IMG/VR virus record: IMGVR_UViG_3300022602_000036
Span: 1 to 64,000 of that record
Strand: one strand, 5' to 3'
DNA: 64,000 nt
DNA from: a virus
In this document: positions 9,568-50,518 of the stretch, one piece after another
Position numbering within the stretch: the first letter of the stretch is position 1
How the letters are laid out: every line of letters starts with the position of its first letter
The notes under the pieces: model-generated
Databases searched by the model: none
Seen by the model: only the letters and a program-made list of their open reading frames with translations
Told to the model about the DNA's origin: nothing
Translations under genes and position numbers: made by a program

Positions 9568-11892
9568 TTGAGCAATATTCAAGTTAAGAAACGCAGCGGA
9601 GCCATCGTTCCGTTAGATTTAACAAAATGGCAAAATCAAGTAGCTAAAGTATGTCAAGGTATAGCTGATGTTAGCCAATCGATGATTGAGATCAAGGCCC
9701 AACCACACTTTTACGATGGTATCAGTACACGCGAAATTGATGAAATTACTCTACGTGCTATTGTTGATCTTATTGACGTAGAACACGAACCCGATGTAGG
9801 GCATACCAACTATCAATATGTAGCAGGCAAACAACGCCTAAGTATGCTGCGTAAAGACGTCTATGGTGACTATAATGTTCCGCACCTATTGGAAATTGTT
9901 AAAACCAATGTAGCCACAGGATTGTATACCAATGAACTATTAACTTGGTACACAGAAGAAGAGTGGAACAAAATGAATGACCTGTTAGATCATGAAAAAG
10001 ATGAAAGTTATTCATACGCAGCCATTGAACAACTAATTGAAAAGTATCTAGTTCGTAACCGCTCAACAAAACAAATTTACGAAACTCCGCAGATTCGCTA
10101 TATAATTGCGGCCGCAACAGTGTTTCACAAAGAACTACCTAGTCAAAGATTGCGTTATATTAAAGATTACTACGCCTGCGCCAGCGATGGATTGTTTACC
10201 TTAGCTACTCCTGTTCTAGCTGGCCTGGGCACCCCTACAAAACAATTTAGTTCATGCGTGTTGATCAAATCAGACGATGATCTAGATAGTATTTTTGCAT
10301 CAGGCGAAATGATGGCCAAGTATGCAAGTAAACGTGCTGGTATTGGCTTGGAGATTGGACGTCTACGCCCATTGGGATCTCCCATCAGAGGTGGTGAAAT
10401 CATGCACACTGGTATGATCCCTTTCCTTAAAAAATGGTTTGGTGACCTACGTTCATGTTCACAAGGTGGTATTAGAAATGCGTCAGCTACTGTGTTTTAT
10501 CCAATATGGCATCATCAATTTGATGATCTTATTGTGCTTAAAAATAATCAGGGCACTGAGGAAACTCGTGTACGTCATATGGATTATGGGGTCGTACTAT
10601 CGGCACTGTTTTGGCGTAGATTCAAAAACAAAGAAATGATCACGTTCTTTGATCCAAACGAAGTGCCTGACTTATATGAAGCATTTTACAAAGACATTGC
10701 ACTATTTGAAGAACTCTATGTCAAATACGAAAAGCAAAAAGACCTACGTAAAAAAGTCCTACCAGCAGAAGAAGTATTTAAAGGTGGTATCTTAAAGGAG
10801 AGAACTGATACTGGGCGTATCTATCTTGTGTTCATTGACAATGTCATGAACCAAGGTCCATTTGATCCAGAATACCACACAATTTATCAGTCAAATTTAT
10901 GTTGTGAAATATTACTTCCTACCCGTCCTTTTAAGCGTCTTGACGACAGTAACGGCCGCATCGCTTTATGCACTTTGGGATCAATCAACTGGGGTGCGTT
11001 CCGCAATCCAGAAGACATGCGTCGTGCTTGCCGTATACTTCAGCGCAGTCTATGTAATATCCTTGACTATCAAGATTTCTTAAGTATACAAAGCAAACTC
11101 AGTAATGACGAAATACAACCACTAGGTATTGGTGTTACTAATCTTGCCTATTGGCATGCTAAACGCAGTTATCAATACGGCACACCAGATGCACTACAAG
11201 ATGTTAAAACATGGATGGAGCATCAGGCATTTTACCTAACAGAAGCCACAGTTGAACTAGCTAAAGAACGTGGTGCTTGTACACACAGCGAACACACACG
11301 TTATGGTAAAGGTTACTTCCCTTGGGAAAGTCGTGCTAAAGGTGTTAACACTCTAGCAGACTTTACACCAAGTCGTGAATTGGATTGGGAACAGCTACGC
11401 AGTGACATGAGATCATATGGTGTGCGTAACGCTACCTTAATGGCAGTAGCACCTGTTGAAAGTTCTAGTGTGGTGATTAACAGTACCAATGGTATTGAAA
11501 TGCCCATGAGTTTGATCTCAGTTAAAGAATCAAAAGCAGGCTCGTTTATTCAAGTTGTTCCAGAATACAACAAACTAAAAACTAAGTATCAATTGATGTG
11601 GGAACAAAAGGACTGCGACGCATATTTGAAAACAGCGGCGGTGCTAGCGGCTTATGTGGATCAAAGTATCAGTACAAATACATTTTACAATCCAGCGCAC
11701 TTCCCAGATCGTAAAGTTCCAACTACATTGATTGCTAAGAACTTGATGCAGGCTCATGCGTGGGGTATTAAAACATTCTACTATAGCTTGATTAATAAAG
11801 CTGGAGCAAAAGCACAAGACGAACCTAAAGAAATCTTAGTAGATGAAGTATCAACATTAGACGACGAGGACTGCGAAAGCTGCAAATTATAA
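9568..11892 (+). CDS. nrdA: Class Ia ribonucleotide reductase alpha subunit
   Basis: ATP cone, QFSSC, SNLCCEI, KTFYY and C-terminal CESC; uninterrupted. Confidence 0.97.
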   Translation: MSNIQVKKRSGAIVPLDLTKWQNQVAKVCQGIADVSQSMIEIKAQPHFYDGISTREIDEITLRAIVDLIDVEHEPDVGHTNYQYVAGKQRLSMLRKDVYGDYNVPHLLEIVKTNVATGLYTNELLTWYTEEEWNKMNDLLDHEKDESYSYAAIEQLIEKYLVRNRSTKQIYETPQIRYIIAAATVFHKELPSQRLRYIKDYYACASDGLFTLATPVLAGLGTPTKQFSSCVLIKSDDDLDSIFASGEMMAKYASKRAGIGLEIGRLRPLGSPIRGGEIMHTGMIPFLKKWFGDLRSCSQGGIRNASATVFYPIWHHQFDDLIVLKNNQGTEETRVRHMDYGVVLSALFWRRFKNKEMITFFDPNEVPDLYEAFYKDIALFEELYVKYEKQKDLRKKVLPAEEVFKGGILKERTDTGRIYLVFIDNVMNQGPFDPEYHTIYQSNLCCEILLPTRPFKRLDDSNGRIALCTLGSINWGAFRNPEDMRRACRILQRSLCNILDYQDFLSIQSKLSNDEIQPLGIGVTNLAYWHAKRSYQYGTPDALQDVKTWMEHQAFYLTEATVELAKERGACTHSEHTRYGKGYFPWESRAKGVNTLADFTPSRELDWEQLRSDMRSYGVRNATLMAVAPVESSSVVINSTNGIEMPMSLISVKESKAGSFIQVVPEYNKLKTKYQLMWEQKDCDAYLKTAAVLAAYVDQSISTNTFYNPAHFPDRKVPTTLIAKNLMQAHAWGIKTFYYSLINKAGAKAQDEPKEILVDEVSTLDDEDCESCKL

Positions 11893-27165: not shown

Positions 27166-29088
27166 ATGTCTAAGATCATTGGTATTGACCTCGGCACCAC
27201 TAACTCATGTGTGGCCATTCTTGAAAACAACAAACCAAAAGTAATTGAAAATAACGAAGGTGCTCGTACTACACCTAGTATCGTTGCCTACGGCGATGAG
27301 ATCGTAGTTGGTGCACCAGCTAAACGTCAAGCAGTTACAAATCCAAAGAAAACAGTCTATGCGGCTAAACGCTTAATTGGTCGTAAGTTTGACGAAAAAG
27401 AAGTACAAAAAGACATTGACCTAATGCCATACAAAATTGTTAAAAACAAAAATGGTGATGCATGGGTTAAGATTGATGATCAAGAACTAGCACCACCACA
27501 GATTTCAGCTGAAGTCTTACGCAAAATGAAAAAGACCGCTGAAGACTATCTTGGACATGAAGTAACACAGGCAGTTATTACTGTTCCTGCTTACTTTAAT
27601 GACAGCCAACGTCAAGCAACTAAAGATGCAGGTACTATTGCAGGCCTAGAAGTCTTACGTATTATCAATGAGCCAACAGCGGCTGCACTAGCGTTTGGTA
27701 TGGATAAAGATTCTAAGAAAGATCGTAAGATTGCTGTATACGATCTAGGTGGTGGTACATTTGACGTATCAATCATTGAAATTGTAGATGTTGATGGCGA
27801 AAAACAATTTGAAGTACTAGCTACCAATGGTGACACATTCCTAGGCGGTGAAGACTTTGACCAACGTCTAATGAACTACTTAATTGATGAATTCTTAAAA
27901 GAGTCAGGCGTTGACCTGTCAAAAGATGTTCTAGCTCTACAACGCCTAAAAGAATCAGCAGAAAAAGCTAAAATTGAACTATCAAGCAGCCAACAAACCA
28001 CAGTAAACTTACCGTACGTTACTGCTGATGCCACTGGTCCTAAACACTTAAACGTAACTATTACACGTGCTAAGTTTGAAGGCCTAGTAGAAGATTTGAT
28101 CAAACGTGCTAGCGAGCCATGTAAGGTAGCATTGAAAGATGCAGGTGTAAGTGCCAGCGACATTGATGATGTTATCTTAGTTGGTGGCCAAACACGCATG
28201 CCTAAGGTACAGGAATCAGTTAAAGAGATCTTTGGACGTGATCCACGCAAAGACGTTAACCCAGACGAAGCTGTAGCAGTTGGTGCGGCTATCCAAGGTG
28301 CTGTTCTAGCAGGTGATAAAACAGACGTGTTATTGTTAGACGTTACTCCGTTGAGCCTAGGTATTGAAACAGTTGGCGGTGTTATGACTAAACTGATTAA
28401 AAAGAATACAACTATTCCTACTAAAGTTAGTCAAACATTCTCAACAGCAGAAGACAACCAACCAGCAGTTACAGTAGCTATTGGACAAGGTGAACGTGAG
28501 TTTATCAAGGACAACAAGAAACTAGGTGAATTTAACCTAGAAGGTATTGCTCCTGCTCCACGTGGCGTGCCAGCAATTGAAATTACACTTGACATTGATG
28601 CTAACGGTATCTTGAAAGTAAGTGCCAAAGATAAAAACACTGGCAAAGAAAACAAGATCACTATCAAAGCTAACTCAGGCTTAACTGAAGAAGAAATTGA
28701 AAAGATGATTCAAGAAGCTGAAGCTAACAAAGATGCTGACGTTAAAGCTCGTGCTGTAGTTGATGCTAAAAACCGTGCTGATGAACAAGTACACGGTATT
28801 AACAAAGCATTAAAAGAACACGGTGACAAGTTAGATGATGGCATGAAAGAAAAAATTGAATCAGCACTAAAAGATCTTGAAACAGCCAAAGCTACAGAAG
28901 ATGCTGACAAGATCATGGAAGCTATCTCAGCACTAGCTGAGCCAGTTAAACCATTGTTTGATATTATGCAACAGGCTGAAGTAGCTAAACAAGCTGAAGT
29001 TCAACCTGGTGCACAACCCAATTCAGAGAAACCAGTAGAAGGTGAAGTAGTAGATGCTGAGTTCACTGAAGTTAAAAAGGATGCCTAA
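27166..29088 (+). CDS. dnaK: Hsp70 chaperone DnaK
   Basis: [27 protein letters not shown]; full length. Confidence 0.98.
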
Positions 29089-33858: not shown

Positions 33859-34674
33859 ATGCGAGCATGGATATGGGCAGCAGTCTTATTTGTTACGACT
33901 CTGCCCTCTTTTGCTGGCGACAACCAAGCATATATTGATCAATCTGGTCAATTCTCAGATATTTACGTATTACAAGATGGAGTAGGCAATGGCCTATATG
34001 GTATAGGCGGCCCTGCTATTCCCACAAATACAGCTACCATTCATGGTAATGGTAATGTAGTAACCATACAACAAACAGGCTCCAACGATCAACTACAGTT
34101 GAACATGGAAACTTCCAGTATGCCACGTCCGATGACCAATGTTAGTTGTCCTACATGCCCACAACCTGTACAAGGCAACAGTTGGAGTTATAACATTAAT
34201 GGTAACAATGCCAAAGCGGTTATAGATGTCAACGCAGATGGCAAGAATACTTCAGTGAGTAATGGCATGGATGTGTCACAGATAGGTGATAATGCCGTAT
34301 ACAATGGGCGTTTTATTGGCGACCATAACTCAGTGACTGTATCAACTACAGGACTTAACCAAACAGTTAATACAAGCGTAAGCGGTAGTACTAATACACA
34401 GACTACCAGTGCCGCTAATGGTAGTTACAATATTGTCACGGTAACACAATCTGGCACAAATGGCACGGCGCAGACTAACTTAAATGGTACTGCTAATATA
34501 GTCACAGTAAATCAAACAGATGGCGCTGCAAATGGACATCGCACAAACCTAGACATTAGTGGTAATAGTAATACCATTGCTGTTAATCAAAGTAGTCTAG
34601 TAGCAGATAGTAATATAAATCTTAAAACCACTGGCAGTAATAATGTTATCAACATAACGAGTATGTCAAGATGA
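33859..34674 (+). CDS. Secreted curlin-repeat protein
   Basis: Signal peptide, DNQAYIDQSG, curlin-like repeats. Confidence 0.8.
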   Translation: MRAWIWAAVLFVTTLPSFAGDNQAYIDQSGQFSDIYVLQDGVGNGLYGIGGPAIPTNTATIHGNGNVVTIQQTGSNDQLQLNMETSSMPRPMTNVSCPTCPQPVQGNSWSYNINGNNAKAVIDVNADGKNTSVSNGMDVSQIGDNAVYNGRFIGDHNSVTVSTTGLNQTVNTSVSGSTNTQTTSAANGSYNIVTVTQSGTNGTAQTNLNGTANIVTVNQTDGAANGHRTNLDISGNSNTIAVNQSSLVADSNINLKTTGSNNVINITSMSR

Positions 34675-35795
34675 AGCAACTACTAATCTTGTTACTTGTC
34701 CCTTTACTAGCCAATGCCGCAGTGGGTACTATCACAGAACAAACAGCCCTGCCTGGTACTATTACTCGTAGTTTTACTGCCATGGAAGGTAAGAAAGGTG
34801 CTGGCATTGAAATGAATGACAAGGTACAGACTACTAAAGGTAAGATTGGCATTACATTCCAAGACGATACTAAAGTAGAAGTTAATGAAAGTAGTAAGTT
34901 AGTCATTGATGATTTTGTATTTGATCCTAAAAAGCCCAGTGCCGGCAAACTGGCTATGAAGTTTACACAGGGCACAGTTCGTTACGCATCAGGTGCTATT
35001 GCGCACAGTAACCCTAACAAAGTAGCACTAAACACGCCTAGCGCGACCATAGCAGTGCGTGGTACAGACTTTACGGCTACAGTAGATGAAATGGGCGAAA
35101 GTACTGTTATTCTACTGCCAAGTTGTCCTAAAGGTTGGGCAGATATAGACAGAGATTGTAAAACAGGTGCCATTGACGTTATTAACGATGCTGGTATGGT
35201 TAGTCTTAATGTAGCCTTTCAAGGCACTAAGGTAGCCAGTCGTACTACAATGCCAATGAAACCAACAGTATTAAACTTGTCACCTGATACGATTAACAAC
35301 CTGCTGATCGTTAGTCCGCCCAAAGAACTACGCAAGGAAGGAATAGAAACTAAAAACATATCAACTAAAAATCCTGCTGATATGTTAAATGTAGACTTTC
35401 TTAAACAAGATTATTTAAAAAATGAGTTTGAAAAAGAAGGCACACCCTTTGGAGATAACCCATTGGCACACCCACTATTAGAACAATACTTCCTTGAAAA
35501 CATTTTTGACATCTTGGCACAACAGCTACAAGAAGAACAAGCTGGACTACTAGCTAACTTGATAGCACCAAGTCAAACTAATAACATACTGCCAGACTAT
35601 AAAAAGTCTACAGGTGTTACTGAAAGTATTGGCGCAAGTGAAGTTACCTTATGCCGTAGTGATGGCAGTAACAATCAATGTATTAGTACTCCTAAAGATC
35701 AAAATAGTCTACTAGTAGAAACACAGGGCGCAGTTACTATTAAAAACCGTGTCAATCAAGGTGCGGGCAGTACTATAACGGTGATACAACGATGA
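34671..35795 (+). CDS. Secreted FecR-domain protein
   Basis: Signal peptide, ITFQDDT.V, TPSATIAVRGTDF. Confidence 0.85.
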   Translation: MKQLLILLLVPLLANAAVGTITEQTALPGTITRSFTAMEGKKGAGIEMNDKVQTTKGKIGITFQDDTKVEVNESSKLVIDDFVFDPKKPSAGKLAMKFTQGTVRYASGAIAHSNPNKVALNTPSATIAVRGTDFTATVDEMGESTVILLPSCPKGWADIDRDCKTGAIDVINDAGMVSLNVAFQGTKVASRTTMPMKPTVLNLSPDTINNLLIVSPPKELRKEGIETKNISTKNPADMLNVDFLKQDYLKNEFEKEGTPFGDNPLAHPLLEQYFLENIFDILAQQLQEEQAGLLANLIAPSQTNNILPDYKKSTGVTESIGASEVTLCRSDGSNNQCISTPKDQNSLLVETQGAVTIKNRVNQGAGSTITVIQR

Positions 35796-39172: not shown

Positions 39173-39201
39173 AGTTTAAATACTAACGTTTGGAGAAATA
39201 C

Positions 39202-39450
39202 ATGGACAACAAAACCTACAGTAAAGACTTAGATATTCAAAAGATTGAAAACAATGTAGGGGGTAGCCGTTTTGAATTGATATTAATTGCAGCTACACGA
39301 GCCCGTGAAATATCTAATATACGCAATATTGCTAATAGAAATAATCCAGCGTTGAAGTATGATACTAAAATTACCACAGAAGCATTAAAAGAAATTGAAG
39401 ATGGTAAAATAGGCCGCGAATACTTAATGAAAGTAGTCAAAGCAAGATAA
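39202..39450 (+). CDS. rpoZ: RNA polymerase omega subunit homolog
   Basis: SRFELILIAATRAREI...K.TTEALKEIEDGKI; GGAGA RBS before ATG 39202. Confidence 0.85.
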   Translation: MDNKTYSKDLDIQKIENNVGGSRFELILIAATRAREISNIRNIANRNNPALKYDTKITTEALKEIEDGKIGREYLMKVVKAR

Positions 39451-39471: not shown

Positions 39472-39696
39472 ATGAAAACCCTGGCAGACCTAGCCGTTGG
39501 CCAAGTAGCAGTGATCAAAGCCTTAGCGTTTGATGATCTAGGTTACCATAAGCGACTATATGGTCTAGGACTGCGAGAGGGTAAAGAAATAAAAATTATT
39601 AGAAAGGGGTTGACAGGTAGCCCACTTCATGTTATAATAGGTACTACTGAATTAGCAATTCGTCAAAAAGAGGCGAAAAATATACATATATTTTAA
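39472..39696 (+). CDS. feoA: Ferrous iron transport protein A
   Basis: TLADL..GQ.AVI, RL..LGL..G, G.PL.V....ELAIR..EA. Confidence 0.85.
   Translation: MKTLADLAVGQVAVIKALAFDDLGYHKRLYGLGLREGKEIKIIRKGLTGSPLHVIIGTTELAIRQKEAKNIHIF
39610..39638 (+). promoter_or_regulatory. Consensus sigma70 promoter inside feoA
   Basis: TTGACA-17-TATAAT with TGn. Confidence 0.65.
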
Positions 39697-39733
39697 TTCG
39701 GTATAAATAAATTTATAAGAAATAAAAAAGAGG

Positions 39734-39762
39734 TTGACACAGTTTATATTAGACTGTATAAT
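39734..39762 (+). promoter_or_regulatory. Consensus sigma70 promoter of the tRNA array leader
   Basis: TTGACA-17-TATAAT with A-rich upstream tract. Confidence 0.85.
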
Positions 39763-39805
39763 AGTTTTTATAGTAACAAATTAATTAAAGGAAAGCGAAA
39801 GCAAA

Positions 39806-39958
39806 ATGTTTAACAACAAGCTACATCAATTTAGAGGATCGAAACAAGTGCAAGCACTCGTAACGATATCTTATTGGCTAGCGATTGAGACAACATTAGG
39901 CAATGATCGTGCACCGAATAGTATCGATGGGGTTCGAGAGGGATGGGATGGTTATTAA
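39806..39958 (+). CDS. Candidate 50-aa leader peptide (not in ORF track)
   Basis: MFNNKLHQFRGSKQVQALVTISYWLAIETTLGNDRAPNSIDGVREGWDGY, between promoter and terminator; AAGGA upstream. Confidence 0.55.
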   Translation: MFNNKLHQFRGSKQVQALVTISYWLAIETTLGNDRAPNSIDGVREGWDGY

Positions 39959-39984
39959 GTAAATAACAAAATCCAAAACTTTAA

Positions 39985-40024
39985 GAACCCTAGAACAGAA
40001 ATGTTACTAGGGTTTTTTGTTTTA
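39985..40024 (+). terminator. Rho-independent terminator, candidate attenuator
   Basis: AACCCTAG-AACA-gaaa-TGTT-a-CTAGGGTT followed by a T run. Confidence 0.85.
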
Positions 40025-40237
40025 TGTGTCAGGGAAACGAGGTCCAAGCAAGGCACATTAAAGATTGTATGTTAAACGGGCGGGACTAGAGGATGGATTA
40101 CCCTTGTGTGGGTAAAAAAATTCTAGTTATAATAAAACACATTGGACGAATATACTTGCTGGGGTCGTATAATGCGGCGCCTTCAATACCAAACACCAGT
40201 GTGCTTTATTATACGCATTCGCAAGAGTGTGTTTAAA

Positions 40238-40311
40238 CTCAGTGTGGTGTAGAGATAACATGCGTGGTTTGGGACCATGTGTCGAAGGTTTGATTCCTTC
40301 CACTGAGACCA
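40238..40311 (+). tRNA. tRNA-Pro(TGG)
   Basis: Cloverleaf with encoded CCA. Confidence 0.9.
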
Positions 40312-40317
40312 TTTAGC

Positions 40318-40401
40318 GGGTGATGAGCAGCATTGGCGACTGCAGCAGACTGTAAATCTGTGTCCTCTGGAAACTAGGTTCGACTCCTAGATCACCCACC
40401 A
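40318..40401 (+). tRNA. tRNA-Tyr(GTA)
   Basis: Cloverleaf, extended variable region, CCA. Confidence 0.9.
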
Positions 40402-40407
40402 AGTTAT

Positions 40408-40502
40408 GTCGCAGTTCCAGTTACATTAATCTCTCAGTTCAAAGCTGTTAGTGTGCAAAGGACACGAGAAAGTCAACTTCTTCTGGGTAGACTGTGACGC
40501 CA
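40408..40502 (+). ncRNA. tRNA-like RNA with acceptor stem and CCA but non-cloverleaf body
   Basis: GTCGCAGT/ACTGTGAC-G-CCA; internal stems; no T-loop. Confidence 0.6.
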
Positions 40503-40509
40503 AAATTTA

Positions 40510-40583
40510 GGGTCGTTAATTCAATGGGAGAATAGCTGGCTTTTAACCAGTCTACGACGGATCGTAACCGTCACGACTCACCA
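40510..40583 (+). tRNA. tRNA-Lys(TTT)
   Basis: Cloverleaf, atypical T-loop ATCGTAA, CCA. Confidence 0.88.
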
Positions 40584-40630
40584 AGTATTTTATAGATAGA
40601 GCTAAATAATAGTAATAAGGAGCTCTACCT

Positions 40631-41041
40631 ATGAAGTATTTTAATTGTTTATGTTGCGGAAAAGAAAATATCATTAAAGGCTATAGTTATACAGGAAAAT
40701 ATTGTAATAACAAATGTCAAGCAACACATCGCACAGCTAAATGGTTTGAAGATAATAAATTATTGTTTGAACAAGGTTTACTTAAGCATAGATCAGCAAT
40801 TAAAAAGTTTGTTAAATTAAGAGATGGTGAAATGTGTTCTATTTGCGGACAATCGCCAGAATATAATAACAAGCCGTTAGTTATGATTATAGATCATATT
40901 GATGGTGACGCAAGTAATAATATGCCGGATAATTTTAGATTAGTGTGTCCAAATTGCGACTCGCAGTTAGATACATATAAAGCACGAAATATAGGAAATG
41001 GTCGTGCTACTAAAGGTATGAAATGGTATAGTAGTTTATAA
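40631..41041 (+). CDS. HNH homing endonuclease
   Basis: CLCC..CNNKC, CSICG, IDHIDG..NN...N...VCPNCD. Confidence 0.88.
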   Translation: MKYFNCLCCGKENIIKGYSYTGKYCNNKCQATHRTAKWFEDNKLLFEQGLLKHRSAIKKFVKLRDGEMCSICGQSPEYNNKPLVMIIDHIDGDASNNMPDNFRLVCPNCDSQLDTYKARNIGNGRATKGMKWYSSL

Positions 41042-41043
41042 AT

Positions 41044-41119
41044 GCGGTATTAGCTCAATCGGGAGAGCACGGCACTGTCACTGCCGAGGTAAGGGGATCG
41101 AAACCCCTATATCGCGCCA
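41044..41119 (+). tRNA. tRNA-Asp(GTC)
   Basis: Cloverleaf, T-loop ATCGAAA, CCA. Confidence 0.9.
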
Positions 41120-41127
41120 AATAATTG

Positions 41128-41156
41128 TTGACAGCATTGTCTGTTAGCTATATAAT
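41128..41156 (+). promoter_or_regulatory. Consensus sigma70 promoter inside the tRNA array
   Basis: TTGACA-17-TATAAT. Confidence 0.8.
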
Positions 41157-44023: not shown

Positions 44024-44052
44024 TTGACATTTTGATTAAATGACTGTATAAT
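44024..44052 (+). promoter_or_regulatory. Consensus sigma70 promoter giving a leaderless mRNA
   Basis: TTGACA-17-TATAAT-6nt-ATG 44059. Confidence 0.8.
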
Positions 44053-46077: not shown

Positions 46078-46548
46078 ATGAAAAAATTAGACATCAATTA
46101 TGTCCGTGATTACATAGAATCACAGAGCGCAGAAACCAAAGTCTACATTGGTGGAGACAGCCGTCGTTTCCGTAAAAATGGCAAATGGTATGCTGAATAC
46201 ACCTTGGCAGTGGTTGTACACCTTAACGGTAAAAACGGCTGTAAGATCTTTGGTGAAAGCTCAGTTGAAGTTGACTATGATCAAAAGCGTAGTCGTCCAG
46301 CTATGCGTCTAATGAACGAAGTATATAAGATTTCAGAACTATACCTTAAACTGCACGAAGTATTAGAAGATCGTGAAGTTGAAGTTCACTTAGACATTAA
46401 CCCTGATGAAATGCATGGGTCAAGCTGTGTGGTGCAACAAGCAATTGGTTATATCCGTGGTACCTGTAATGTCATACCATTGGTTAAACCAAATGCGTTT
46501 GCGGCTAGCTATGCGGCAGACCGTCTACATCACGTAGTAAATGGTTGA
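46078..46548 (+). CDS. RNase H-like YkuK/DUF458 family protein
   Basis: VYIGGDS, RLMNEV, EVHLDIN, KP.AFAASYAAD. Confidence 0.82.
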   Translation: MKKLDINYVRDYIESQSAETKVYIGGDSRRFRKNGKWYAEYTLAVVVHLNGKNGCKIFGESSVEVDYDQKRSRPAMRLMNEVYKISELYLKLHEVLEDREVEVHLDINPDEMHGSSCVVQQAIGYIRGTCNVIPLVKPNAFAASYAADRLHHVVNG

Positions 46549-46573
46549 CACAGCGGCCAAATGAGCGTATAAT
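46545..46573 (+). promoter_or_regulatory. Consensus sigma70 promoter
   Basis: TTGACA-17-TATAAT upstream of tRNA-Gly. Confidence 0.8.
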
Positions 46574-46834: not shown

Positions 46835-46863
46835 TTGACATAGTCACTAAAAGGCAGTATAAT
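46835..46863 (+). promoter_or_regulatory. Consensus sigma70 promoter
   Basis: TTGACA-17-TATAAT. Confidence 0.7.
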
Positions 46864-48284: not shown

Positions 48285-48497
48285 ATGAATCCAACGACAT
48301 CATTTCTAGTAGTACTACTAATCACAGGCTGTGCTGTCCAGCCTACTCCCGCAAAAAATAATAAGCAAGTTGAAACAACACCAAATAAACCAGCGTACAC
48401 ATTGTACGTACCACCAGAAGAAATATGGCCAGAAGATTATCAATCACCCCCAAAAGTCTGTGCTAGCCCATTTAGAGGAAGTATATTAGAAAGATGA
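48285..48497 (+). CDS. Small lipoprotein
   Basis: Hydrophobic N-terminus with LITGC lipobox. Confidence 0.6.
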   Translation: MNPTTSFLVVLLITGCAVQPTPAKNNKQVETTPNKPAYTLYVPPEEIWPEDYQSPPKVCASPFRGSILER

Positions 48498-50518
48498 AAA
48501 ACAAACTTAAGAAAATCTTAGTCAGTCCATGGACTGCTCTCATTACTCTAGCTCTTATTGTAGCTGTAGTGTTTCAAGGACCTACATTTGTAGAAAGTGT
48601 TAGGCTCCGATACTTTGACACACTTATTACCAATCAGAAGCCTACTCAAAATAATATCTATACTGTAAACATAGATGAAGCTACCATAGACCGTTATGGT
48701 CAATGGCCATTTAAGCGTGACATCTATGCTAATCTAATTGATCAAATATACGCCCACAATGCTGGCCTAGTTGTTTGGGACGTATTAATGCCAGAAAAGG
48801 ATCGCCAAGGTGGCGATGCAACACTAGCCACAGTGTTAAGAACACAGGCTAATGTTATTCTTACTAACATGCCCGCACAGACCAGCAAGAATATTCCACG
48901 CAAACCAGGTAGTGCTGTAATTGGTGCAGACTATTTAGATACTATCATTAACTATCCAGGCATTATTGCCAACATTCCAGAATTAGAAAATAATGCCATT
49001 GGTGTTGGTATTGCTAACACTATGCCAGAGATTGATGGTGTTAATCGTCGCTTGCCATTGTTTGTGGGCTATAATGGTGGCTTATATCCCAGCGTTCCTT
49101 TAGAAGTACTGCGTGTTATTAGTAATGATGACACATTCCAAGTTAAGCTAAATGAGAATGGCGTTGAGAAAATGCGTGTGCCTAGCTTCCGTCCTATTAG
49201 TACAGACAGCCTAGGTCGTATCTGGGTAGACTGGAGTCAACAGAGTATTCCTGTATCAGCAGTTAACCTACCTAAAGACTTTAAGAAAGGTATTGTTATT
49301 GTAGGTACCAGTGCCGCAGGTATTGGTAATCCAGTAGCAACATCAAAAGGCAGTGTTTGGCCACAAGACATGCAGGCCGCTGTAGTTGCTACGCTGGCTA
49401 ACAATGTAAATATTGAACGTCCTGATTGGGCTCCTGGTGCTGAACTATTAGCACTTGTAGTTATCTCACTTATTATCCTAATATTATCACGTTGGGTATA
49501 TGTTGGCCTAGGTGTAGGTGTTGTATTAACTGCTAGTTTAATTCCAGCAAGCATGTATGTGTTTGCGCACTACAAGTTCTTAATAGATGCTATTGTGCCT
49601 ACAGCAGGTGTAGTTCTTGTTATGCTACACGCTTATGGTGTTAAGTTTGTTAGTGAATTCTTACAGAAACAACAGATCAAGAAACAGTTTGGCAGCTATG
49701 TTAATCCTACTATAGTAGAACGCTTGCAAAAGAATCCAGAGCTGATCAAACTAGGTGGTGAGCGTAAAGAACTATCAATTGTCATGACAGACCTGCGTGG
49801 GTTTACTACCCTAGGCGAATCGTTTGGTGATGATGTAGAAGGACTTACACAGATCATGAACGACTACATGACAGCACTGAGTATTCCTGTGCTTAAGAAT
49901 GACGGTACACTGATCAAGTTCATTGGTGATGCCAGCCTGCACGTTCATGGTGCTCCATTGGATGATGCTAACCATGCCAAGACTGCGGTACGTACAGCAC
50001 TAGAAATGATTGATGCCATTGCTGATTTCAACAAGGAACTAACAGCCAAAGGTCGTCCACCAGTGGGCATGGGTGCTGGTGTTAACACAGGTGAAACTTT
50101 AATTGGTAACATTGGTGCTAAAAGTAAGTTTGGCTATGATGTCTTAGGTGATAGTGTCAGCACTGCGGCACGTTTAGAAGGACAAACTAAGGCCTATGGT
50201 GTATTACTAATCATTGGACCTAAGACTGCTGAGTATTGTAAAGATGACTTCCCTGTGGTATGGTTAGACAACATTGCTGTTAAAGGCAAAACCATCGGCT
50301 TAGATATCTATGCTGTGGGTCATACAGTCGCATACAAACACGAAGAATATAAGAAAGAATATCTACGTGGCAATTGGGTTGCCGCACTTAAATGGGCACG
50401 TGAACTAGAAGCTGATCCAACTGTAGAAATTAAAGAATACTATCACAAGATGATTGAGCGTCTTGAAGAGGGAGTTCCAGCTAACTGGGACGGCACTTAT
50501 CACGCTACGAGCAAATAA
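48494..50518 (+). CDS. CHASE2-domain membrane class III adenylate/guanylate cyclase
   Basis: TM-CHASE2 (IDE..GQWP, DGVNRR)-3TM-cyclase (TDLRGFT, KFIGDA, YDVLGDSVSTAARLE, VKGK). Confidence 0.92.
   Translation: MKNKLKKILVSPWTALITLALIVAVVFQGPTFVESVRLRYFDTLITNQKPTQNNIYTVNIDEATIDRYGQWPFKRDIYANLIDQIYAHNAGLVVWDVLMPEKDRQGGDATLATVLRTQANVILTNMPAQTSKNIPRKPGSAVIGADYLDTIINYPGIIANIPELENNAIGVGIANTMPEIDGVNRRLPLFVGYNGGLYPSVPLEVLRVISNDDTFQVKLNENGVEKMRVPSFRPISTDSLGRIWVDWSQQSIPVSAVNLPKDFKKGIVIVGTSAAGIGNPVATSKGSVWPQDMQAAVVATLANNVNIERPDWAPGAELLALVVISLIILILSRWVYVGLGVGVVLTASLIPASMYVFAHYKFLIDAIVPTAGVVLVMLHAYGVKFVSEFLQKQQIKKQFGSYVNPTIVERLQKNPELIKLGGERKELSIVMTDLRGFTTLGESFGDDVEGLTQIMNDYMTALSIPVLKNDGTLIKFIGDASLHVHGAPLDDANHAKTAVRTALEMIDAIADFNKELTAKGRPPVGMGAGVNTGETLIGNIGAKSKFGYDVLGDSVSTAARLEGQTKAYGVLLIIGPKTAEYCKDDFPVVWLDNIAVKGKTIGLDIYAVGHTVAYKHEEYKKEYLRGNWVAALKWARELEADPTVEIKEYYHKMIERLEEGVPANWDGTYHATSK

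Follow-up and report, generated by a model that had tools for sequence, protein, structure and literature searches.

A candidate attenuator at the head of a phage tRNA array

In a phage represented by an IMG/VR record, we find a cassette that is likely, if by no means certain, to be a ribosome-mediated (leader-peptide) transcription attenuator; it would gate the passage of transcription from a promoter, P1, to a structured RNA and the first part of a tRNA array. Comparison with related sequences suggests that the phage probably makes more tRNA when ribosomes decode slowly. The cassette has the makeup of a leader-peptide attenuator, with a short promoter-proximal open reading frame (ORF), an intrinsic terminator before the regulated genes, and an antiterminator that excludes the terminator and lies within reach of the ribosome. 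Its parts, their conservation, the covariation of the pairing strands, and the biased composition of the leader peptides are direct observations.

The window, which is the whole stretch of 64 kb that was analyzed, is the first part of a 149-kb record (IMGVR_UViG_3300022602_000036) with a CheckV completeness of 42%, implying a phage of roughly 350 kb. Cultured relatives of the region and its neighborhood were sought by blastn and megablast among 50,697 phage records, with no match. A search of genome contigs with the structured-RNA motif gave essentially chance matches, in GC-rich genomes, from which no host can be inferred. The original prediction, drawn up from the letters of this DNA, had named a promoter, a 50-codon ORF, a strong terminator, and then the tRNAs, and all are present as it placed them. 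The parts are as follows.

39700 to 39733, + strand: A/T-rich stretch 5' of the -35 hexamer, UP-element-like, kept in relatives (alignment)
39734 to 39762, + strand: promoter P1, TTGACA-17-TATAAT, a 12/12 sigma-70 match
39806 to 39958, + strand: leader ORF of 50 codons, ATG at 39806 and TAA at 39956-39958, with 19 of the 20 amino acids and no Cys
39911 to 39916, + strand: Ala36-Pro37 codons of D34-R35-A36-P37, next to the Arg codon CGT at 39908-39910
39928 to 39992, + strand: antiterminator hairpin of 65 nt, from constrained and truncated folds and covariation, found in 91 of 91 distinct leaders; base helix 39928-39935 with 39985-39992, inner helices 39938-41/39979-82, 39946-49/39971-74, and 39951-56/39962-67
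39983 to 40023, + strand: intrinsic terminator, hairpin 39983-40017 and T-run 40013-40018, then G and TTTT, -17.4 kcal/mol
40025 to 40237, + strand: conserved structured RNA of 213 nt, from terminator to tRNA-Pro, from RNAalifold and covariation
40238 to 41119, + strand: first block of the tRNA array (Pro, Tyr, Lys, HNH ORF, Asp), ending before a promoter at 41128

The A/T-rich stretch at 39700 to 39733 would act as an UP element for P1. Promoters are a regular part of the arrangement, as a sigma-70 match of at least 10/12 occurs in the 95 nt 5' of the leader in 65 of 87 related leaders, compared to 3 of 81 control windows.

The cassette recurs across phage and metagenome loci

A leader-terminator unit is present in 145 of the 184 loci that carry the downstream RNA, with 96 distinct leader peptides. 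Leaders were called by a rule blind to composition, as the longest ATG ORF of 18 to 80 codons with its stop 0 to 85 nt before an intrinsic terminator, the terminator itself lying within 800 nt upstream of the structured RNA. The 91 leaders analyzed below are those of 60 residues or fewer among the 96. Pattern and peptide searches of IMG/VR and metagenomes yielded a close set of 51 loci with about 32 distinct peptides; a profile-based locus search returned no relatives beyond those from the pattern searches.

The order of the unit is constant, with promoter, leader ORF, antiterminator/terminator, sometimes a small ORF, structured RNA, and tRNA array, and the ORF stop lies 23 to 41 nt from the terminator. 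A same-strand tRNA array follows in 78 of the 81 loci with enough sequence, with a median of 10 tRNAs within 3 kb. The first tRNA varies among relatives (Tyr in 20, Pro in 15, Cys in 8, and others), and on this ground we rejected a loop specific to tRNA-Pro, in which a conserved Pro codon in the leader would report on a first tRNA for Pro.

Antiterminator and terminator are mutually exclusive and covary

The terminator hairpin has the core AACCCTAG/CTAGGG and a loop of more than 8 nt, because of which it was missed by a simple terminator scan. It has positions 39985-39992 in common with the antiterminator, whose base takes the first 5 to 8 nt of the terminator 5' arm, and the two structures are therefore mutually exclusive. 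The original prediction had this exclusion resting on GGGGTTC (39929-39935), which starts 12 nt past the Pro codon (39914-39916) and pairs with GAACCCT (39985-39991) with one G-U pair. The pairing is real, but its 7 bp are merely the base of a longer, interrupted hairpin spanning 39928-39992.

Judged by comparison of the sequences, the pairing of GGGGTTC with the terminator arm is beyond chance. Cognate strands pair at -18.1 kcal/mol, compared to -13.7 kcal/mol for noncognate ones (permutation p<1e-4). In a MAFFT alignment of 24 close relatives, 92% of cells in the antiterminator base helix are paired, against 29 to 60% in slid registers. If the pairing matters, GGGGTTC and GAACCC should covary in relatives, as the original prediction had anticipated, and 5 pairs of the base helix have changed on both sides, a result reached by 0 of 500 shuffles. 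For the terminator, 98% of cells are paired and 3 pairs have changes on both sides. Between lineages, the covarying strand pairs include GGGTTC/GAACCC, GGGTCC/GGACCC, AGGGTTTAAG/CTTAAACCCT, and CTAAGTT/AACTTAG, and compensatory pairs of antiterminator base and terminator arm include GTTC/GAAC, GTCC/GGAC, GTTTAAG/CTTAAAC, and GGTTTC/GAAACC. One relative, L145, has a perfect 14-bp antiterminator base.

Folding of the nascent RNA agrees with this picture. When the RNA is cut before the terminator 3' arm, it folds as the antiterminator, with the CCC of the terminator paired to the upstream GGG, in 30 of 30 unique close relatives. Each of the 91 leaders no longer than 60 residues has a nascent fold in which 4 nt or more of the terminator 5' arm pair with sequence further upstream (hairpin median z of -5.8), and for 90 of the 91 this partner belongs to the final ~30 nt of the ORF. 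The 30 close relatives have near-isoenergetic full-length conformers, separated by a ddG of -5 to +6 kcal/mol; the value for the window is +3.8. Because of a conserved A-A mismatch, the commonest close type has just 3 to 4 bp that compete with the terminator, and the terminator is favored by up to 6 kcal/mol, so that a kinetic switch, not a thermodynamic one, would be needed in that type.

The hairpin is also tied to the leader ORF. The last 8 to 14 codons of the ORF make up the antiterminator 5' strand, and the stop codon of relatives always falls inside that strand or in the apex; in the window it sits in the apical loop. Folds and covariation thus lend comparative support to the predicted coupling of a mutually exclusive antiterminator/terminator pair to a leader ORF upstream of the tRNAs. 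In the window, GGGGTTC is 22 to 27 nt upstream of the stop, beyond the cover of a ribosome at the stop codon, and termination there would depend on melting of the upper helices.

The leader ORF is maintained

Among relatives, indels in the leader ORF are all multiples of three, whereas the 5' leader and the hairpin loops have indels of other lengths, and the Arg and Pro codons vary synonymously. Both patterns indicate that the ORF is held open by selection. The alternative two frames of the leader DNA contain 2.7 to 4.2 stops. A pooled pN/pS of 0.71 among relatives shows that most of the peptide is weakly constrained, with the exception of a Trp and a D-R-x-P block. A Shine-Dalgarno-like motif at -18 to -4 of the start is found in only 46% of leaders; the window leader has one 12 nt from its ATG. 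No family was found for the leader peptide in Pfam (E<=0.01) or PHROGs, and no credible Rfam family for the leader and downstream RNA (E<=1 on 10 kb; E<=10 on 511 nt). We infer that the leader is translated.

Codon usage in the window leader is unusual. Its codons are rarer than those of phage genes (CAI-like index of 0.59 versus 0.73, P=0.02), and exact matches of leader codons to phage anticodons are not enriched (0.53 versus 0.50). The stretch 39806-39919, which holds codons 1 to 38 and lies 5' of the antiterminator strand, favors codons that end in G and that the phage's own genes seldom use (TCG, ACG, GCG, CCG, and GAG), and these are mostly kept in close relatives. It uses 30 distinct codons in 38, compared to a mean of 24 in phage genes.

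Leader peptides are near-pangrams

All 20 amino acids occur in 66% of the 96 distinct leaders, and at least 19 in 89%. For the 91 leaders of up to 60 residues, whose mean length is 45, the average is 19.45 distinct amino acids. Random peptides of 43 residues with matched composition reach 16.8 on average, with a probability of 0.9% for all 20 and 8% for at least 19, and the other two frames of the leader DNA average 16.6 types. The first 45 residues of ORF2, a small downstream ORF of some relatives, give 15.3. Exactly one Cys, His, and Trp occur in 71, 72, and 81 of 90 leaders, respectively, and the position of the Cys differs between lineages; in the L015 type, for example, a Cys precedes the hairpin.

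Since single-linkage clustering at 40% identity joined almost every leader together, greedy representatives were used instead. In 23 representatives below 35% identity, the summed count lies 7.7 z units over the null and above all 20,000 simulations, a figure to be read with the leaders being homologous and their lineages thus not fully independent. When 65% of the positions of a pangram are replaced at random, as under neutral change, 5% of trials retain the full set of 20, compared to 10 of 23 (43%) observed.

At least 19 types are already present upstream of the point at which a ribosome would cover the antiterminator strand in 57 of 91 leaders, compared to a null probability of 1.8% at 35 residues. 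We tentatively consider, as plausible without being probable, that the leader has been selected to hold every amino acid once 5' of the antiterminator strand, as an any-of-20 OR-gate or homeostat for charged-tRNA supply. Any single tRNA shortage, as might follow host anticodon-nuclease cleavage or host shut-off, would then stall the ribosome and open the gate. Phage tRNAs would be made, decoding would become fluent, and the gate would close again.

Predicted products of read-through and the scope of the proposed gate

The tRNA array begins at 40238 with tRNA-Pro, the first tRNA after the terminator, and comprises 28 tRNA genes covering all 20 amino acids; leader and product thus compare at 19 of 20 amino acids in the one and tRNAs for all 20 in the other. 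The structured RNA comes before the array. RNAalifold predicts 39 pairs in it, 17 of them with compensatory changes, and in the window its 213 nt hold no conserved ORF. The motif occurs in more than 118 IMG/VR contigs, always between attenuator and tRNA array. The structured RNA would be the first product of read-through, and it is the one that is universally linked to the cassette.

The structured RNA, of ~210 nt, has five covarying helices and conserved loops GAAACGAG and AACGGGCGGA, and in the relatives L014 and L134 it has a variable domain with a T-arm-like GGTTCGACTCC. Between structured RNA and tRNA-Pro, at L002 3400-3490 and likewise in L010, L014, L015, L021, and L024, lies a tRNA-like element that combines an acceptor-like stem with a GGTTCGAGTCC T-arm; it was not called by ARAGORN.

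Transcription through the terminator is itself indicated by what lies beyond it. The TATAAT 3' of the terminator is a strand of a 14-bp helix, TATAGTAGAGCAC with GTGCTCTACTATA, that shows double compensatory changes; a TATAAT within a covarying RNA helix implies that this DNA is transcribed from upstream and the terminator read through. Many relatives also have ORF2 between terminator and structured RNA (for example L023, L225, L226, and L228), with 46 to 60 codons and an AAGGAG ribosome-binding site. It starts ~20 nt past the T-run, leaving no space for a promoter. ORF2 is rich in charged residues and helix-like, is known in 46 distinct versions, and is absent from the window.

A candidate that was considered and rejected is the conserved TGTTATAAT 3' of the terminator as a second promoter, which would make the terminator irrelevant. 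Its hexamer lies in a compensatory RNA helix, and its TG sits in another covarying helix.

How much of the array the cassette could govern is set by other promoters. Within 7.3 kb, the + strand has six promoters that match TTGACA-17-TATAAT perfectly (12/12).

39610 to 39638, + strand: inside a FeoA-like ORF, 124 nt upstream of P1
39734 to 39762, + strand: P1
41128 to 41156, + strand: within the array, without attenuator
44024 to 44052, + strand: within the array, without attenuator
46545 to 46573, + strand: within the array, without attenuator
46835 to 46863, + strand: within the array, without attenuator

The last four, at 41128, 44024, 46545, and 46835, supply most of the array, and it follows that the cassette would gate P1 transcripts only. 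The P1-gated output would consist of the structured RNA, of tRNA-Pro, -Tyr, -Lys, and -Asp, and of anything reached by transcripts that read on, and the earlier description of a device controlling the tRNA array holds for the P1-driven head of the array but not for the parts served by these attenuator-free promoters.

Among neighboring genes, an RNA polymerase omega-like gene (39190-39450; Pfam Rpb6, E=1e-9) and a FeoA-domain gene (39472-39696; E=1e-17) are directly upstream of the tRNA promoter. Elsewhere, the window carries a DnaK/Hsp70 gene (27166-29088), whose product is ~67% identical to DnaK proteins labeled Salmonella, Pseudomonas phage, and Acinetobacter phage in the phage collection, and genes for a class I ribonucleotide reductase large subunit (9568-11892), a CHASE2-adenylate/guanylate cyclase protein (48494-50518), and a FecR-domain protein (34671-35795).

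Proposed mechanism and alternatives

We infer the direction of the switch and the signal that it senses from how the parts overlap. RNA polymerase would start at P1 and transcribe the leader ORF of ~45 codons, the end of which (the last 8 to 14 codons and the stop codon) would form the 5' strand of the antiterminator hairpin. A ribosome close behind the polymerase, on reaching the stop codon, would melt or occupy this strand, allowing the terminator to form, with termination at about 40018 after fluent translation of the leader. A ribosome delayed in the first ~35 to 38 codons, or one that never loaded, would let the antiterminator form first, and the polymerase would proceed into the structured RNA and the tRNAs. 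New tRNAs would feed back and restore termination. Nearly every amino acid is in the leader, mostly once, and the device would accordingly sense charged-tRNA supply for any of the 20, or general translation speed. The comparative evidence supports the predicted logic that impaired translation favors read-through.

Where the stall would occur was seen differently in the original prediction, which proposed a TnaC/SecM/Apd-like arrest at RAP. In such a scheme, a W...D-R-x-P peptide in the exit tunnel would stall the ribosome at or near the Pro, perhaps depending on a ligand or on stress, and this stall would set read-through in place of tRNA supply. The TnaC peptide of Escherichia coli has a fixed W-x3-D-x7-P spacing and a Pro codon directly followed by the stop, and it controls Rho-dependent termination before tnaA/tnaB; SecM, ApdA, and ApdP arrest at R-A-G-P or R-A-P-P with Pro-tRNA in the A site. 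The phage leaders resemble these in a Trp ~12 residues before the Pro and, in the window, in R-A-P. Conservation of the W...NDR(A)P pattern, which the same proposal entails, holds in part: the W is present in 89 of 90 leaders and D-R-x-P in 53 of 91, but DRAP in just 6 of 91, with DRTP in 40. D-R-x-P is the best-conserved block (D in 64, R in 74, and P in 60 of ~80 aligned), and synonymous codon changes keep its residues.

Several observations make such arrest unlikely as the basis of the switch. Leaders without D[R/C]xP, 38 of the 91, retain both the switch and the pangram content. The distance from W to P is 11 to 16 (one leader has 26), with 13 from W24 to P37 in the window; the residue at W+4 is E or N in the family and Glu in the window. 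The Pro is followed by E, N, G, H, S, or A and never by another Pro, and the second Pro or Gly of RAPP/RAGP is missing; the window has R-A-P-N, and 13 sense codons follow its Pro, in contrast to the stop codon of TnaC. The Pro codon lies 7 to 15 nt before the antiterminator strand, a position in favor of arrest. Yet the same gap means that a Pro-stalled ribosome would cover the strand in some lineages; with the Pro in its P site, a ribosome on leaders of the L118 and L006/L023 types would cover 5 to 8 nt of it, and a stall at that point would favor termination. The phage terminator is, moreover, intrinsic and not Rho-dependent, and the downstream genes are RNAs. No leader matches an arrest-peptide family in Pfam, the tna leader included. 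The W and D-R-x-P residues may contribute to pausing.

It is quite unlikely that the cassette regulates nothing, being a small-protein ORF with a leaky terminator and a hairpin that acts as a 3' stabilizer or an RNase III-type processing site. This would suit a stable hairpin that directly adjoins the terminator and coexists with it in the minimum-energy fold of the commonest type, a peptide with a conserved core, and strong unattenuated promoters that serve most of the array. It leaves aside, however, that the hairpin base tracks the terminator 5' arm by compensatory changes, that the conformers are near-isoenergetic in all 30 relatives, and that the stop codon is always in the hairpin 5' strand or apex. 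Nor does a small protein give any reason for 19 to 20 amino acid types, for the shifting positions of Cys, His, and Phe, or for a pN/pS as high as 0.71. Protein-controlled antiterminator/terminator pairs are common in bacteria (BglG/SacY, PyrR, and TRAP), and parts of the upper stem are invariant in close relatives, but control by a trans-acting factor, whether an RNA or an RNA-binding protein of phage or host origin, that binds the hairpin while leader translation is incidental is very improbable, since neither the sequence nor the length of the apical loop and upper stem is constant between lineages, the 91 leaders share no conserved candidate binding motif, and the conserved ORF frame, the stop position in the hairpin, and the amino acid completeness would be left unexplained.

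Relation to known systems

The closest parallel to a leader-peptide attenuator of this kind is the uORF of whiB7 in mycobacteria and other actinobacteria, where it is experimentally established that efficient translation leads to termination and translation stress to read-through (PMC10274678). The amino acid content of that uORF decides which starvation is sensed; the M. smegmatis version encodes all amino acids but Cys, and whiB7 uORFs are Ala rich, at 25 to 40% (PMC10274678). Both systems have a uORF, a rho-independent terminator, and a competing antiterminator. They differ in that there is no sequence relationship and no family match, that the phage output is a structured RNA and tRNAs rather than a transcription factor, and that the phage leaders are even, with most amino acids once or twice and a bias toward completeness across many lineages. 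By analogy, the phage cassette would work like the whiB7 uORF without being a member of that system.

Classical attenuators such as the trpL, hisL, pheL, and multivalent ilv/thr leaders (PMC1183508, PMC3082878) likewise combine a short ORF near the promoter with alternative hairpins and an intrinsic terminator, and a ribosome stalled at regulatory codons favors the antiterminator. They control biosynthetic enzymes through runs of one to three cognate codons, whereas the phage leaders are without codon runs. The classical leaders also terminate without translation by means of a fourth segment (1:2 pairing). No such anti-antiterminator is seen in the phage cassette, and an untranslated RNA should therefore read through. 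In erm/cat-type leaders and the toiL uORF (PMC12121999), a short ORF again reports ribosome stalling and alters downstream expression, but the stalls are drug dependent, occur at specific codons, and often act via translation initiation or Rho, while the phage leaders have an intrinsic terminator and no conserved specific stall site.

The kind of mechanism is already known, and what is new is the kind of output, its setting in a virus, and how complete the leader is. A full-text literature search yielded no description of phage tRNA genes under leader-peptide attenuation. The reason for which phages have tRNA genes, and the way in which these are expressed, have been under debate for decades. 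Recent work shows that infection can be rescued by phage tRNAs when the host defends itself by cleaving tRNA (PMC10264068, PMC11555353). An attenuator of the proposed kind makes a specific prediction, namely, that withdrawal of any amino acid or tRNA represented in the leader raises read-through and that withdrawal of the absent one, Cys in the window, does not. Near-complete amino acid content is a simple sequence signature that could be used to find such sensors elsewhere. If the proposal is correct, leader-peptide attenuation would extend from amino acid and resistance genes to RNA genes, and the phage would measure decoding capacity directly and answer with tRNA synthesis.
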